NCBI GenBank assembly: GCA_026025075.1
Contig: JAPEUI010000100.1
Coordinates: forward strand, 1-60,277
Length of the DNA stretch: 60,277 nt
Source: Vezdaea acicularis
Lineage: Eukaryota
Direction: 5' to 3'
This document shows positions 53,908-60,277 of this stretch, in pieces (the first letter of the stretch is position 1; each line of letters begins with the position of its first letter). The notes beneath the pieces are model-generated. The model worked only from the letters and a program-made list of their open reading frames with translations, had not been told where the DNA came from and searched no databases. The translations under genes and the position numbers were made by a program.

Positions 53908-55357
53908 TTATATAGTAGTCTGTGTCAAATGGGTATCTGTATCAACGCCTATTTTCCCTTTCACATTCCCACTTTCTGTAGAAGCCTTCTTCCTCTTGGC
54001 TTGAAACACTTTCTTCAACTTCTTCAGCCGCACCCAACGCTCCTCATCCCGCGCCAAACGAGCATTGGCATCTTCCTCAATGTTCTCGTCCTCAATACTG
54101 TAGGCCTCACTTGCCACATCAGACGTTCTGGGCTCCGATTCTTCTAGTAAGCGCTGCTGGCTCCTTAGCACACGTACTAGAATTTCCCACCCGGGCTGTC
54201 GGACTTGCAATATATCTTTCTTCGGTGTAGAGGATGAGCCCGCCTGCGAATCGGCATTGACCCAAGGACAATAGTCCCGATGCTCAGCGACGACGTCTAG
54301 ACGGTTCATCGAAGCTTCTCCTTCATCTACATCAACCGAAGAAATAAGTGGTCGAGAGAAAAGCCAGAGGCCAAGGCGACGAAAGCACGCGGCACAAGTC
54401 ACAAGGCCAGCGACGTGGCCTTCTTCTGCTTGCCAGCCAAGAAGCGCAAGTATAAGCGCTCCTTGGTTCGGGGCATCGACTTTACCCGTGATATTAGAAA
54501 CTAAGCTATCACAGGATGTAGCGGAATGCTCGCCTAGAGCCGGTGGATTTCGAAGAACAGCGTTGAAATCAGGACTTTCCGGGTGAGAGATATTTGTTGG
54601 AAGTGCGGAAGCTACTGATATTATCGATGCATATCGCGAACGAAGAGCAGCGAGCGATATGGCTGGCTGGTTTAGAGGTAAACGGTAGATGGCATCATCG
54701 CAGCCCCGTCGTTGCCAGAGACAATGCTCGTCATGCTCCGTAACCATCATCTCCACATAGCGATCGACAAGCTGCTCGTCTATGCCCGTATCAGCTGAAG
54801 CAGCAAGGGAAGATTACATAGAAAATCCACTTACAGGCGCTGATCTTCCATTCATCTCCCTCCTCATCTTCTGGCAGCCCCTCTGCCTGCTCAAGACTCA
54901 TTCGTGTCCTATCCTCGAGATTGATATAGACCTCCTTTCCACAACCACTGACGCACCCCACTCTCTCCCTACCAACACAGCTCCATCCTCTTTTTGCCCA
55001 CTGCACTTCGTTAGCCCTTGCGGGTTTCACGCTCCATTTGTCTACATGTCTAAATGTCTTCAACCGTCCTAGAAATTGACCCCTGTCCCACGGCGCGTAA
55101 TTGGGCAAAGACTGTTTTGCTGCAGGCACCTTGATGATTGATGACGCTGCTTGAGTCCCGGGCTCGGGTGTGCTTGCTATGGATTTGGCAGAGGCTATGA
55201 CCTCAGACGCTGGCCTGGCAAGCCGTCGCCTCTTGGTTTGCGACTCTAGGTTCGCCGGTAATGTCGTGCTCGATGCGTTATCCCTTGAATCTGATAGAGG
55301 TCGGTTGGTAGATAGAGATTCTAGGAGTCTTTGAAACTTGCGCTTAGATGCGTACAT
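53908..55357 (-). CDS. rsm1: C3HC zinc-finger mRNA export factor (Rsm1/NIPA/Pml39-like); intron 54780-54834
   Basis: YAPWDRGQFLGRLKTF, WAKRGWSC, HDEHCLWQRRGC, CAACFRRLGLW, EHRDYCPW. Confidence 0.85.
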
Positions 55358-55451
55358 TGCTGAAAAGCGACTCAAAGTTTATTTTCTTAAGAGATGTGTA
55401 GTCTTCGGTGTTGTTCTATACTTCGCGTAGCTTTTGAGCGCCTGTGAGTTT

Positions 55452-55499
55452 GGACCCGGATAGAATGCAGAGAAACTATCGCTTTAGCGCTGCGCCGTC
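55452..55499 (+). repeat. Left terminal inverted repeat of the MULE
   Basis: GGACCCGGATAGAATGCAGAGAAACTATCGCTTTAGCGCTGCGCCGTC. Confidence 0.95.
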
Positions 55500-55553
55500 G
55501 CTTTGACCCTTGCTGTATTTATGCAAATACTGAGCCTCCCCCTTCAAATCGAC

Positions 55554-55647
55554 GGGCGCGTGGCCCAGGGATTAGGGTGAGCGGTTGGCCGCTGCTCCTC
55601 GACCCCCTTGGTTGCGGGTTCAAATCCCGTACGGGTAGTTCTATTTT
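55554..55647 (+). ncRNA. tRNA-like Pol III cassette (A-box, B-box, T4 terminator); not a canonical tRNA
   Basis: TGGCCCAGGGATTAGG A-box/D-arm (GCCC/GGGT stem); AGCGG/CCGCT stem with only a 4-nt loop; T-arm GCGGG-TTCAAAT-CCCGT; TTTT at 55644-55647. No adjacent acceptor stem. Confidence 0.5.
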
Positions 55648-55873
55648 CAGGTCAAGCTGTCTCACCGTTCCGGCTAGGCTGGGTAAGACGGGTGAGTCAC
55701 TGTGGTAAATCAGGGGGGTGGGGTCCGCTATATAAGAAATTTCATTCATTTGAAATTTCTAACAACTGAAATATTTTTCAGTAGAAACTTTCTGGGGGCA
55801 AATAGAACTACCCACACGCCGTCGGTTTTTGAAAAATTTTTATAACCATTGTCAACCTAGCTCACTCAATACA

Positions 55874-57219
55874 ATGAATCTCAACCTGGAAATCGACGCT
55901 CTGCTTGCCACAGGCGCTTTTGACGACGTTCAGAGCAACAGCGGTCAGCGTCAAGAGGTGCGACGCCGTCTAATACGATGGAGACATAACGCAAAAGATA
56001 TAGAAACGATCATCAGCCCTATTACCTATAAAGATTTGAAGAAAACCTGGCGCAAGAAGGAACATTTCGAACTCGATCCCTCCCAATTGCCAAAGTTCAC
56101 GCGCATTACCAGCTCTAATATTCATCACCAAATCATCGACACGCATGGCAATCTTCTTGTCTACCGCTATCAAATACCCATGTCTTTTGTCGATAAGCTC
56201 TTGGAGACAACAAACAGTCTACCACCGGTTAAACCTGTTGAAGGTCCAAGATGTAATGACTGTACTAGCCCCTAGCTCCTATCAAGTCTTTTGGGATGAA
56301 TAAGGGGTAAGGAGGCTAGCTTCGCTTCAGCTTCGCTTCTGCTTCGCCTAGCCCCCTAGCACTTAGCATAAGGCCAGGTGGTCCTTAGATCACCTGACAT
56401 AGACGAGCGTAGCTATCAGAGCTGCCGCTTCCCTTAGGATAGCTCTTCAGCAATCAACTCATCTATTCATCTGAATAACTAGTAGGAAGACATCCTCGCT
56501 TTGCTTCGTCTGACCTTTCTCCTATCTTGCCTTACCTCGTCTTGCCTCGCCCCAGTACTATCACTGCACCTAGTCTTCGTCTGCAAGTTCTTGAGTCCTT
56601 GGGAGTTAGCTCACACGCCTACAGACCCTCGCTCCTTGACGAAGCACTGGCCTGTCCTTACACAAGAGGCAGCTTTATGGTACGCCATTATGCAGCATGG
56701 GCGGACTATATGCCGGAGCCAAAATCGAGCAAGGAATATCGCGATCAGCTACCGTATTCAAAGGAATTTCTCGATAACAATCAATCGTTATTCAATCGGC
56801 TATCAGATGATCTCCGTCTCATCTATCCTACCATGTACACCAAATATAAAAGCGTTCAAAAGTTCTATCCCGAAGGTGTACGCTCTCTTGCTGGAGTATG
56901 GCATGGTATTGCGGTTAATCAAGGACAAGATGATGCTGAAGGTACTGGAACCCATCAAGATTGGCAAGATTATTATTACGGATTTAACACTGTACTACCA
57001 TATGGTACTTACACTGGAGGCGCTCTTATTCTTTGGCAACTTGGTGTTATTTACGAACTTCAGCCAGGTGATGTGATAATGTTCTTTGGAGCTCTTATTG
57101 CGCATAACACAGAAGGGGTAACAGCTGGAGAAAGAAATTCAGTGGACTTGTTTGTGCATAAGAGCACTCTGGATTGGAAAAAGCGTTTGATGACAGGTAA
57201 ACAGGTATTTTCTAAATAG
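55874..57219 (+). pseudogene. TET/JBP-like 2OG-Fe(II) dioxygenase (about 309 aa when reconstructed), disrupted by a solo LTR
   Basis: Removing 56252-56667 fuses ..VEGPR|GSFMVRHY.. in frame. HxD (THQDWQD), GGALILWQLGVIYELQPGDVIMF, distal His (AHN) and RxS (ERNSV). TATATAA at about 55729. Confidence 0.8.
56252..56662. mobile_element. Solo LTR 1 (411 bp)
   Basis: Ends TGTAATGAC...GTCCTTACA (imperfect inverted repeat). 5-bp TSD CAAGA at 56247-56251 and 56663-56667. Confidence 0.9.
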
Positions 57220-57268
57220 ATCAAATAGTTAATCCTGATGTGGAGAAGAATAAAAGTTATTTGATGGT

Positions 57269-59814
57269 TTAATCCTGTTTATCTTCAACTATATCTAAGT
57301 TCATTGACTCCGGCAATAGTTTATCAACATTGACAAAACTTAGGTTTGGCTCCGATGCTATCAAATCTCTCACGCTATGTTGCATAAGAGGACCAGTTAC
57401 TTTGGATAAGCCATCAATCCAAGTGTTCACTACTGTTGCTGCAGTATCAGGTTCTAAGACACTTGCGGCTTCCTCTATTCGGTAATACGCAGAACGAAGA
57501 CTGTCTTGTACCTAAGCCAAATAGATAAGCTATTATGCCAACATGATGAAGAGTAAGATCATACCTCTCGCAACTTTAGTTTTCTCTGTTCGGGTGCTCC
57601 TATTATTCCGTGTACATCCGAATGGATAAAATCTCTTCTTAATAGTTAGCAGAGTTGGTGACAAAGCTATGTACTCACTTTGTCATGCTTTCATAAACTT
57701 CCATGCCGCTGTCCTCAAACATGAAGGTAAATAGTTTCCAATCAGAATCTTTTAAAACTCCATAGAGTAGCTCTTGCTGCCAGATATGCTGACATGGCAG
57801 TTGGTATTGTCTCCAGAACAAACAATCGCAGGTGACTTCCTCTCCAAAAGGCTTCATATCATCCGTATCAGTGGATTCTTTAGCAAGTCGCAACTGTTGT
57901 ACCATTAACAATTGCACAGGGTAAAGTAATTGACGCAGCGCAGGCCATTCAGCTATTTCTGAAACCATTTTGGTCCGAAAATCACGCTTTGCTTGGTCTG
58001 CGCGAGCTGCCCATTGACTGTTGACTTCAACTAAAGTTCTTAAAATTCCGCAAAGAGAAAAGCGAGAACGATTTGAAGCAGTGGCATATGTTTTTAAAGC
58101 ATTATGCCATGATTCTACAGAGTTTGTTGTGGTAACCTAAAGAGTTATGAGTAAAATTTGGACATTGGATGGAAAACATACTTGTAACAACAAGCACGAA
58201 TGAGTTCGGCTGTAATGTGCTCAAATCCGCTTAGTATCTGCCCATTCTTTTTGAATATACGCTTTCTCCTGTCTTGGAGCAGCTTGAATTGCGGCAGCAA
58301 TACTTTGATCGCAACCAAACTCTGTACGACGTGCACATAAGGCCGATAGTAGATGTTTTTGGGCTTCAGAAGAACTCTTTAGCCTACGGTTAAGCGTTCT
58401 CATTGAATGCACTCGACAAAGCAGATGTGTAACCTCTGTTTCACCATCTTCAAGCTTATAAAAAGCTTCTCGGATTGCTCTTTGCTCTACCGCTGAATCA
58501 TCTGTAATGATATAGCGCAGTCTCCAAGACCGACACCATTGTTTAATGGTTCGTAATCCTTGTGCAAGTACAAAAGAATCTTCCTTCCTACTGAAATTAG
58601 CTTTGTTGCAAATGGAAGCTTGAACTTACATTGTCAATAGATGCGCGCATGGCAACCAGGACCCATGCTCTGTGCGTACCATGATTGTGTGCAAAAACCA
58701 TTGTAAAGCATTCGTTTTATGTGTTGAATCCATTAAAGCAAGATGTCTGTCAGGGCACGAGTGTCCTAACACGTCAGGGCACTAGGCGTCCTGATATAGT
58801 ATGTGGATCAAAGAGTTGTATTTCTTCTATCTAGGAGGATACGCTATATATACGAGTCGTCACGTGCCAGTCACGACTGCCCGGTCAAGACAGCGCGGCA
58901 AGCGCTGTCTGTTGTAGAGCAGTCGCATACCGCATAGCGCTGCCCCTATAGGCAGGCGCTATACGAAGGCTGTCCATATTAGTATTGCTGCGTAGTTACC
59001 CCCTACCCCTGTATCCCGTCGCTACCCCCCTGCTCCCATATGCAGGTGTCCCACAACAATGTCCACGATATCGCAACATTTCAATATGAGCGGGCAAAGC
59101 AAAAACTAAACCTGGAGACTCTTCTCCGTCTGGTCGTATGCAATCAATGTTTTCAACAAACCAATCTATTTTTTCCAAATACTCTGCAGCTTCCATACGT
59201 TGTAACTGCCAAGGACTTTCATATCCAGATACTCGAAGGTCTGGTTTAGCTTTTCGAGCTGCTGCACCAGCATTTTTGACGTCGGTACGACTTAAAAATT
59301 CACCACCTGCTTCTTCAAGCTGACAACGTCCATTCGGGTCACGAGATAACCCTGTGATAGCTCTGAATATGGTGGCAGGTTCATATAAACGAGCACCTTC
59401 AATGGCAGCGATCTGCATAACTTTTGATGGTCGTTTGATAGCGTCTGAATGCCTTATATCATGACTGTGTAAGGGCTCGATGGTGTCTGTTTGCCTTGTT
59501 GCAGTATATAAAGAGGTTATTGGATCAAACATTATCTTCATCCGTGCACTGCAAGTTTTTCCTTGACGTCTAGATCGTACACGGATACTTTTACCTGTAC
59601 CTTGTAAGGGACAGGTTTTTCGTTGTAGTCTGCATAACCAATACTCAGTGTGACCGCCATTCTTTGTCTTTTCACATCTATTGCGGACCCAAACATTATC
59701 AACATAAGGCCAGTACTCTTCTTGTTCAGCCTTGCTCATTGTACAAGGGATTGAAAGCTCAAATAAACTCTCTCGCCATCTTGAAAGATCTTTTGGATTG
59801 TTGAGAAGAGTCAT
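57269..59814 (-). pseudogene. MULE transposase (FAR1/WRKY-like N-terminus, DDE domain, SWIM), disrupted by a solo LTR and a premature stop
   Basis: C..C..HSH N-terminal zinc domain; LALMDSTHKTN (after LTR removal); YIITDDSAVEQRA; LLCRVHSMR; VTTTNSVESWH; SWIM CDCLFWRQYQLPCQH. In-frame TGA at 58221-58223; several short introns. Confidence 0.88.
58748..59058. mobile_element. Solo LTR 2 (311 bp), apparently unrelated to LTR 1
   Basis: Ends TGTCAGGGCAC...GTGTCCCACAACA. 5-bp TSD ATGTC at 58743-58747 and 59059-59063. Removal restores RYRGH|LALMDSTH. Confidence 0.9.
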
Positions 59815-60102
59815 TGTTTAAGAACTACCTTGTTATGAGGATTTGGATGTATAAGAATATTGTCTGCAAAGAATCTATTCAGCAAGAGGATGACAGCTGT
59901 GACTACGTTCAATGATGCTGCATCAATGAGGCATCTTACAATCTCATGATGCACGTTAAGGGGTTTAGAAAAATGACGCTAAGCCTGAAGCGCACATCCA
60001 ATCTTAAAATATTCAAATAGGGTTAGACGCTGAGGCTGATGTTCATAATTGTGCTGCACAACTCAATGATTCAAAGCAGTTAGTCTACTGTGACTAACAT
60101 GA

Positions 60103-60150
60103 GACGGCGCAGCGCTAAAGCTTTAGTTTCTCTGCATTCTATCCGGGTCC
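60103..60150 (-). repeat. Right terminal inverted repeat of the MULE
   Basis: Reverse complement reads GGACCCGGATAGAATGCAGAGAAACTAAAGCTTTAGCGCTGCGCCGTC. Confidence 0.95.
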
Positions 60151-60277
60151 GTGAGTTTACGCTTGCATAACCTTAATACTATGCGCAAGGCTTGGACTAA
60201 TTGGGCGTAAGAGATGTCAGCGGCGTTTGCCAGAACTTTGTATCTAAATACATCACTCGGCCGGATCTCGACCACAT

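Follow-up and report, generated by a model that had tools for sequence, protein, structure and literature searches.

Positions 55452 to 60150 of a 60,277-nt contig (JAPEUI010000100.1, positions 1 to 60,277; hereafter the window, meaning the whole stretch of DNA analysed) hold a mobile DNA transposon with two genes, one for a transposase of Mutator type and one for a dioxygenase of the TET/JBP family. We consider it probable that this is a two-gene Mutator-like element (MULE; MULE/MuDR superfamily), disabled in this copy by two solo long terminal repeats (LTRs), and that its TET enzyme would serve against silencing. An earlier reading made from the letters alone, here called the sequence-only reading, had outlined the element, and its claims are taken up below where results bear on them.

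The outline of the element can be read directly from its ends. The 48-nt arms of its terminal inverted repeats (TIRs; 55452-55499 and 60103-60150) are complementary at 46/48 positions (96%), and the 8-bp target-site duplication (TSD) GTGAGTTT stands on both sides (55444-55451 and 60151-60158). Both features fit the range of MULEs, for which TSDs of 8-11 bp are described (PMC6446971). The full span, 55452-60150, is 4,699 bp; taking out each solo LTR together with one copy of its TSD leaves 3,967 bp and restores two convergent open reading frames (ORFs) with stop codons 49 bp apart (spacer 57220-57268). The sequence-only reading had described just such a delimited element, with 48-bp TIRs identical at 46/48 positions and an 8-bp TSD, about 3.97 kb long without the solo LTRs and holding two convergent genes 49 bp apart, and all of this held. 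Within the 60-kb window there is no second copy, blastn of the element returning only itself and its own TIRs.

The boundaries are further fixed by sites at which the element is absent. Contigs of four public moss-metagenome runs from one study (X1-X4) were aligned on window positions 55000-60277. Each run contained a small share of the element's words, in short pieces (151-412 nt) at a depth of 2-4, and all metagenome counts are among the matches listed (156 further records). An empty site, at which 55443 is joined straight to 60151, occurs in at least two of the four runs (a 12,480-nt contig of X1 and a 1,161-nt contig of X4). The joint skips 4,707 nt, that is, the 4,699 nt of the element plus one TSD copy, with eight letters fitting either side, and the empty site carries a single TSD copy. 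In X1 one flank shows a single difference from the window in 444 letters and the other none in 127. This match is far beyond chance; the insertion is polymorphic for presence and absence, and the whole unit, dioxygenase gene included, is mobile. In at least one of the four runs, a contig (X2, record 9) matches 55452-55598 with six mismatches and then runs leftwards into 186 nt of unrelated sequence. This new flank abuts 55452 and reveals another insertion site, with its end at the same base of the TIR. Other contigs cross the internal junctions. An LTR-free joint in the TET gene (56246 to 56663) is seen in at least one run (X3), where the shorter side has only 27 letters, and the 3' end of the TET gene, the spacer and the 3' end of the transposase gene are spanned in at least two runs, by contigs of 392 nt in X1 (57078-57469, four mismatches) and 412 nt in X2 (57078-57489, six mismatches). 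Because the window's own site is empty in X1, the spanning contig of that run is likely to derive from a different copy or from a minor strain. Together, the TIRs, the 8-bp TSD and the empty-site contigs support a delimited, mobile Mutator-like transposon, with the following parts.

55444-55451, no strand: left TSD copy, GTGAGTTT, seen in the sequence and as the eight shared letters at the empty-site joint.
55452-55499, plus strand: left TIR, 48 bp, one arm of the inverted-repeat pair; the X2 contig match stops exactly at 55452.
55555-55638, plus strand: tRNA-like fragment in the left subterminal region, from ARAGORN and a weak Rfam match.
55874-56251, plus strand: codons 1-126 of the TET/JBP gene, colinear with the N-terminal halves of homologues P0003-P0011.
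56252-56662, no strand: solo LTR 1, 411 bp, interrupting the TET gene, recognised by TG..CA ends and the TSD CAAGA.
56668-57219, plus strand: codons 127-309 and the stop of the TET/JBP gene, with the catalytic core, from Pfam Tet_JBP, profile and structure.
57220-57268, no strand: 49-bp spacer between the convergent stops, from the sequence, spanned by X1 and X2 contigs.
57269-59814, minus strand: MULE/SWIM transposase gene, from Pfam, an ORF and a predicted splice model.
58748-59058, no strand: solo LTR 2, 311 bp, interrupting the transposase gene, recognised by TG..CA ends and the TSD ATGTC.
60103-60150, minus strand: right TIR, 48 bp, the other arm of the inverted-repeat pair.
60151-60158, no strand: right TSD copy, GTGAGTTT, from the sequence and the empty site.

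Both genes of this copy are broken by the solo LTRs. LTR 1, with TSD copies at 56247-56251 and 56663-56667, splits the dioxygenase gene after codon 126, and LTR 2, with TSD copies at 58743-58747 and 59059-59063, splits the transposase gene six codons ahead of the first catalytic Asp. The copy therefore cannot be autonomous, and any movement would need transposase and TET enzyme from other copies. Loose ends of metagenome contigs at 56251/56252, 56662/56663, 58747 and 59058 match the LTR borders, and summed contig depth reaches 150-200 over LTR 1 vs about 9 for the flanks in X1; the high depth and the loose ends at both borders of LTR 1 fit dispersed LTR families. An empty allele with nearly identical flanks raises the question of when the LTRs arrived. 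Both insertions and their reduction to solo LTRs may have happened quickly at this site, or an already interrupted copy may have been moved here by another copy's transposase.

The two solo LTRs belong to different families. TpA/ApT is high in both (1.76 and 1.45), the CpG observed/expected ratio of LTR 1 is 0.56, and C>T and G>A make up most of the differences between the window and the metagenome copies (in X1, 29 vs 16 for T>C and A>G). These values, noisy in such short sequences, hint at decay of the LTR elements by deamination or in the manner of repeat-induced point mutation (RIP), with none in the MULE. In all four runs some contigs link the end of LTR 1 (56663), via about 20 extra letters, back to 56446, which suggests a variant or tandem arrangement of the LTR 1 family elsewhere.

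Joined across LTR 1, 55874-56251 and 56668-57219 give exactly 309 codons and a stop, in frame and intronless, in agreement with the intronless 2-oxoglutarate (2OG)-Fe(II) oxygenase of about 309 aa with HxD..H..RxS motifs that the sequence-only reading had proposed. Searched with HMMER against 1.84 billion representative proteins, the 183-aa C-terminal piece had 501 matches at E<=1e-3, 186 of them at E<=1e-10 and 32 at E<=1e-30. The best match, P0002, is 100% identical and is a 367-aa public gene model of the same locus. It reads 58 LTR 1-derived residues in frame, the 3' part of the LTR being open with the catalytic half, and this bridging is probably an annotation artefact. Intact relatives P0003-P0009 (307-350 aa, 48-61% identical) run uninterrupted across the insertion point, which identifies LTR 1 as a disruption of the TET gene. 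A word-based protein search with the TET piece returned a single relative, P0001, which is 46% identical and has a precomputed PF12851 match. Transposase domains were found in 0/14 long TET relatives (431-1,016 aa) scanned with Pfam, and a metagenome locus search with TET relatives gave one confirmed locus from 236 pattern matches, a 1,751-bp contig that encodes P0005 and has no space for a neighbour gene.

Assignment to the TET/JBP family comes from profile and structure comparison. The alignment comprised 67 relatives, namely those of 250-440 aa among 150 listed of the 501 HMMER matches, and among PDB sequences its profile matched NgTet1 (E 8.1e-8) and CcTet (E 5.3e-6) best. An AlphaFold2 model was made on P0002, and hence includes the LTR-derived insert, with the 67-member alignment. 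It reached a predicted local distance difference test score (pLDDT) of 87.6 and a predicted template modelling score (pTM) of 0.83, with low confidence (mostly <60) at about residues 125-185 and in the C-terminal tail; the LTR-derived insert (about 125-182) forms a disordered loop. In Foldseek, ranks 1-26 are all CcTet, NgTet1, CMD1 or TET2 (E 2e-14 to 3e-8), followed by the first non-TET protein at E 7.9e-7 and AlkB/FTO at about 1e-5. VIA-align likewise places TET proteins at all of ranks 1-16 (Z 23.1-14.9), with CcTet at 23.1 (273 aligned, root-mean-square deviation 3.5), NgTet1 at 21.3 (224/265), TET2 at 17.9 and CMD1 at 15.3, vs <=14.4 for other 2OG enzymes and about 13 for FTO/AlkB. The modelled fold is that of a TET enzyme and supports placing the dioxygenase in the TET/JBP family rather than with AlkB-like proteins or with 2OG oxygenases that do not act on nucleic acids; the sequence-only reading had proposed this structural check as a point at which its claim could fail, and the best matches were all of the TET family, with no non-nucleic-acid oxygenase at the top.

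The catalytic residues are intact. The joined protein carries the motifs HQD (H-Q-D-W-Q-D), IAHN, GERNS, LFVHK and GGALILWQLGVIYELQPG, with the catalytic positions H222-x-D224-x-x-D227, H272 and R282. Among the 67 relatives the first His is kept in 63, the HxD Asp in 64, the second His in 66 and the Arg in 61. At position +3 after the HxD Asp, where the window protein has Asp, 43 relatives have Asp, 16 Glu and 4 Gly (Asp or Glu in 59/67). This residue corresponds to Asn1387 in TET2, Asp234 in NgTet1 and Asp350 in CMD1; its side chain hydrogen-bonds N4 of 5-methylcytosine (5mC) and clashes with N6-methyladenine (6mA), and Gly331 at this position of CcTet lets 6mA in (PMC11040006). In the alignment to NgTet1, HxDxxD matches H-K-D-N-L-D and F-V-H matches F-A-H, the F-x-H motif whose His297 is aligned with a base-contacting residue (PMC11040006). 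Judged by these residues, the enzyme looks like a conventional 5mC-type TET.

The opposing gene has the signatures of a MULE transposase. After removal of LTR 2 its first exon is a 290-aa ORF on the minus strand with an ATG at 59814. The predicted exons (59814-59059 + 58742-58630, 58590-58261, 58209-58182, 58136-57679 and 57500-57269) are separated by four GT-AG introns (39, 51, 45 and 178 nt) and would encode an open 638-aa product, on which we read by eye D257, D320/321, CxxH at 348-351, E417 and a SWIM finger at 512-526. We take D..D..E with CxxH to be a MULE signature. To get past the stop at 58221-58223, this model requires a micro-exon of 28 nt; single-intron solutions across that stop were rejected, as 4/4 delete the catalytic-Glu motif. 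Pfam MULE (PF10551) matches at profile positions 3-36 (E 2.6e-4, 21.8 bits) and 43-97 (E 0.032), Pfam Mutator (PF20700) matches exon pieces at E 8.8e-4, and the C-terminal SWIM (PF04434) scores 20.5-21.4 bits, above its cut-off of 19.6. MULE, Mutator, ZSWIM1-3 RNaseH-like and SWIM are the only transposase families matched, in an order colinear with the gene. The MULE/SWIM transposase named by the sequence-only reading is thus supported, by colinear sub-threshold matches and by a SWIM match above threshold. No Pfam match was found in other reading frames near 58100-58380, and a PDB sequence search with two transposase pieces gave 0 matches for each.

Relatives were found only for the N-terminus of the transposase. 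A word-based protein search with the E/SWIM exon returned 0 relatives, and no full-length transposase relative was found; the same search with the N-terminus returned two, P0151 and P0152. The N-terminal 190 residues are 37-39% identical to the N-termini of these proteins, and C61..C88..H116-x-H118 is kept in all three aligned sequences, a C..C..HxH region that fits a WRKY/FAR1-type finger. The AlphaFold2 model of this N-terminus had a pLDDT of 42.9 and was left unused. The rest of P0151 and P0152 is a RibD_C (riboflavin-pathway reductase) domain, with no transposase core. Either a DNA-binding domain of a MULE has been domesticated here or the two gene models are chimeras.

An intact member of the family would be about 3.97 kb long, with two genes reading inward from its two ends. 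One would encode a DDE transposase of about 638 aa, bearing a C..C..HxH zinc-finger region at its N-terminus and a SWIM finger at its C-terminus, and the other an intronless, compact, conventional TET/JBP dioxygenase of 309 aa. On methylated transposon DNA the enzyme would oxidise 5mC to the 5-hydroxymethyl, 5-formyl and 5-carboxyl forms of cytosine, which would weaken methylation-based silencing and possibly methylation-linked C-to-T mutation, leaving the element transcribed and able to move. The substrate and the benefit to the element are both things that we infer.

Several findings weigh against this account. There is no evidence for DNA methylation in the host. Without its LTRs the element has 42.4% GC vs 51.6% in the rest of the window, a TpA/ApT of 0.79 and a (CpA+TpG)/(ApC+GpT) of 1.33, which leaves the RIP-type indices negative by the usual thresholds, and its CpG observed/expected ratio is 0.82; there is no RIP-like composition or CpG depletion that would point to methylation pressure. 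A complete second copy is absent among the metagenome matches listed, which come as short, low-depth pieces from four runs of one study. In the contigs running across both gene ends, a G>A change at 57145 replaces an Asp that all of the 12 closest relatives share, and the copy behind these contigs may also be decaying. On the protein side, the transposase reading frame rests on a predicted splice model with a 28-nt micro-exon, all MULE and Mutator matches fall under the curated cut-offs (26.5-27.6 bits), as expected with the domain split over exons, and Pfam Tet_JBP (PF12851) on the C-terminal piece (E 1.4e-8) scores 34.6 bits vs a cut-off of 34.9, or 0.3 bits short. Finally, the left non-coding part of the element has 48.8% GC, near the 51.6% of the host, and contains a tRNA-like fragment at 55555-55638 (+) that may derive from captured host DNA or be a SINE-like (short interspersed element) piece. 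ARAGORN calls it as an 84-nt tRNA-Ala(GGC), and with the Rfam tRNA model the match is confined to the T-arm (13.2 bits, E 4.1); it is probably not a working tRNA.

This left part bears on the possibility that the TET/JBP gene was picked up from the host by a one-off or recent Pack-MULE-style capture, in this lineage only, and rides as a passive passenger, which we regard as unlikely but worth serious consideration. Classical Pack-MULEs are non-autonomous, lack a transposase and carry host gene fragments, whereas this element encodes a transposase and a full-length TET gene. The latter has a start of its own, 422 bp away from the TIR, its stop codon and that of the transposase are 49 bp apart, and no gene fragments flank it. 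MULEs are known to acquire extra ORFs (PMC6446971), and the tRNA-like fragment upstream of the TET gene, with the 48.8% GC around it, could be co-captured host DNA; a full second copy was not seen among the metagenome matches listed, and the name MuDR is absent from both Table S1 and Data S1 of Kojima 2025. Set against these points, the GC content at third codon positions (GC3) of the TET gene, 0.41, lies under that of 10/10 host ORFs tested (0.45-0.81) and within the range of the five exon pieces of the transposase (0.28-0.45), four of which lie lower than TET, and both the TET-transposase junction and the LTR-free TET junction recur in other contigs, the window's own site being empty in one such run. 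A nested transposon carrying the TET gene was rejected, there being no inverted or direct repeats around that gene inside the MULE. The GC3 values, the lack of internal repeats and the junction contigs favour a two-gene unit over a fresh capture, without proof, and we infer a long-standing association of the TET and transposase genes.

Should the enzyme serve the element, its substrate might still be something other than 5mC, such as thymine (as for JBP and phage T-dioxygenases) or 6mA (as for CcTet), or it might add glyceryl (as does CMD1). Many ascomycetes have little 5mC, and CcTet, which is active on 5mC and 6mA, is the top structural match. All these activities occur among TET/JBP members (PMC12730594, PMC11040006). 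We nevertheless think a substrate of this kind improbable, for at +3 the enzyme shares Asp with NgTet1 (Asp234) and CMD1 (Asp350) and lacks the Gly of CcTet, with the 5mC contact and 6mA clash described above (PMC11040006), and F-V-H aligns with the F-x-H (His297) of NgTet1. It is also conceivable, at a very low probability, that the transposase belongs to another superfamily with 8-bp TSDs, for instance hAT. An 8-bp TSD is typical of hAT too, and the MULE Pfam matches are below threshold; the element would then join a published group, as TET-carrying hAT7 elements are described in rust fungi (PMC12730594). Yet the Pfam scan of the exon pieces gave no hAT dimerisation or BED match, only MULE, Mutator, ZSWIM1-3 RNaseH-like and SWIM in the right order, and 48-bp TIRs with an 8-bp TSD are within the MULE range (PMC6446971). 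We therefore keep to the two-gene Mutator-like element with an anti-silencing TET as the probable explanation.

The idea of transposon-borne TETs is not new, and reportedly Iyer et al. 2014 gave an earlier account of TET-carrying fungal DNA transposons. TET genes on fungal DNA transposons have since been published for about ten lineages, with enzymes of types PU, AG and PE and a proposed escape from methylation silencing (Kojima 2025, PMC12730594). Within the Ascomycota the reported cases are confined to Helitron and IS3EU elements of Pezizomycetes (PMC12730594), and the range 'Basidiomycota and Pezizomycetes' is repeated by a 2026 review (PMC13297926). The background given by the sequence-only reading, with fungal TETs mainly as passengers of Kyakuja-Dileera-Zisupton and Plavaka elements in basidiomycetes, is accordingly out of date. 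The published elements likewise hold a TET/JBP gene beside a transposase inside a TIR/TSD-bounded DNA transposon, with the same proposed role, and the gene appears to move between superfamilies; the element described here is MuDR/MULE, which is not among the ten lineages listed in the available text (PMC12730594). There, MuDR is named in the introduction only, for plant VANDAL and oomycete SET-carrying elements, and 0 times in the supplement. A survey that covered 1,631 MULEs has no oxygenase among the extra ORFs, and its accessible text does not contain the words 'dioxygenase', 'oxygenase' or 'TET' (PMC6446971). Literature searches, whose reach excluded Repbase and Iyer et al. 2014, did not find a pairing of TET/JBP with Mutator, MULE or MuDR.

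The enzyme differs from the published types as well. The PE type of Pezizomycete and Agaricus transposon TETs has the hallmark HxE (PMC12730594), where the window enzyme has HQD and 64/67 relatives keep the HxD Asp; the AG type (Kyakuja/Zisupton, CcTet-like) has Gly or Ser at the CcTet Gly331 position, where the window enzyme has Asp. The comparison with the PU type, the rust-fungus TETs, was by motif strings in Table S1 only. None of five clade-specific motifs occurs in that table, where the single match to a sixth string, LWQL, is in an unrelated sequence of PE type. With NgTet1 of Naegleria gruberi (PDB 4lt5, 5cg8, 5cg9) the enzyme shares the compact single-domain TET fold, HxD...H...R, HxDxxD and F-x-H, and with CcTet of Coprinopsis cinerea (PDB 7vpn, 7w5p, 8jkk) the fold and HxD...H...R but not Gly331. 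Identity to NgTet1 and CcTet is only 12-16%, and the window enzyme, known from sequence and model, is encoded by a MULE. Of the novelty claimed by the sequence-only reading, the concept proves to be catalogued, ascomycetes included, and what stands, as far as these searches reach, is the pairing with a MULE and the TET clade found here. The new part seems to be a MULE carrier together with a conventional HxDxxD TET clade in a probable ascomycete. That ascomycete host, assumed by the sequence-only reading, remains probable on weak, phylum-level evidence: the Atlas clusters nearest to the SNF2 ORF of the window mostly bear the label Ascomycota. The nearest Atlas cluster of the TET piece is labelled mostly Basidiomycota, a label from which the tool itself warns against inferring ranges.

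A second gene antisense or convergent to the transposase is a known MULE arrangement, present in maize MuDR (mudrA/mudrB) and yeast Mutyl (MutB) (PMC6446971). The likeness is one of position: mudrB and MutB are presumably unrelated proteins, and the second gene here encodes an enzyme of known family. VANC, from Arabidopsis VANDAL21, acts by sequence-specific binding. It offers a functional analogy, as a MULE-encoded factor proposed to demethylate its own family (PMC12730594), but it is not a dioxygenase and no sequence relationship is expected. A Mutator-like carrier would be an eleventh transposon lineage, supporting repeated recruitment of TET by unrelated DNA transposons, and would link TET carriage to the superfamily that is home to the best-studied anti-silencing system, VANDAL/VANC, which acts by a different route. 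If the host lies outside the Pezizomycetes, the known range of TET-carrying elements in Ascomycota widens. Among possible erasers of DNA methylation that transposons encode, transposon-carried TETs are the clearest candidates, and in the available text of PMC12730594 and PMC13297926 none has been tested functionally; this enzyme, small (309 aa), intronless, with conventional 5mC-recognition residues and intact homologues, would be an easy target for biochemistry. A larger claim, that an autonomous ascomycete Mutator-like family, possibly outside Pezizomycetes, has stably adopted a 5mC-type TET as its mudrB-positioned second gene, we put forward tentatively and with some doubt. If true, the family would represent an independent enzymatic solution to the problem that plant VANDAL MULEs solve with VANC, its insertion polymorphism in natural populations would mean recent activity, and it would provide a natural system in which to test self-protection by a transposon-encoded demethylase.

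Some minor features complete the picture. Just upstream of the dioxygenase start lies a 19-nt inverted repeat (55628-55646 / 55800-55818, 89% complementary, about 150 bp between the arms). An Rfam scan of the element found no credible RNA family, and a bacterial promoter and terminator scan, a type not relevant to a eukaryote, gave signals not above shuffled sequence. The surrounding window is gene-dense with long ORFs, among them SNF2, ankyrin, RCC1/BTB, diphthamide synthase and aminotransferase genes. The start of a zf-C3HC/NuBaID-family gene (53908-55375, minus strand) is about 70-90 bp from the insertion, with the element upstream, and the polymorphic insertion may affect the promoter of this gene.

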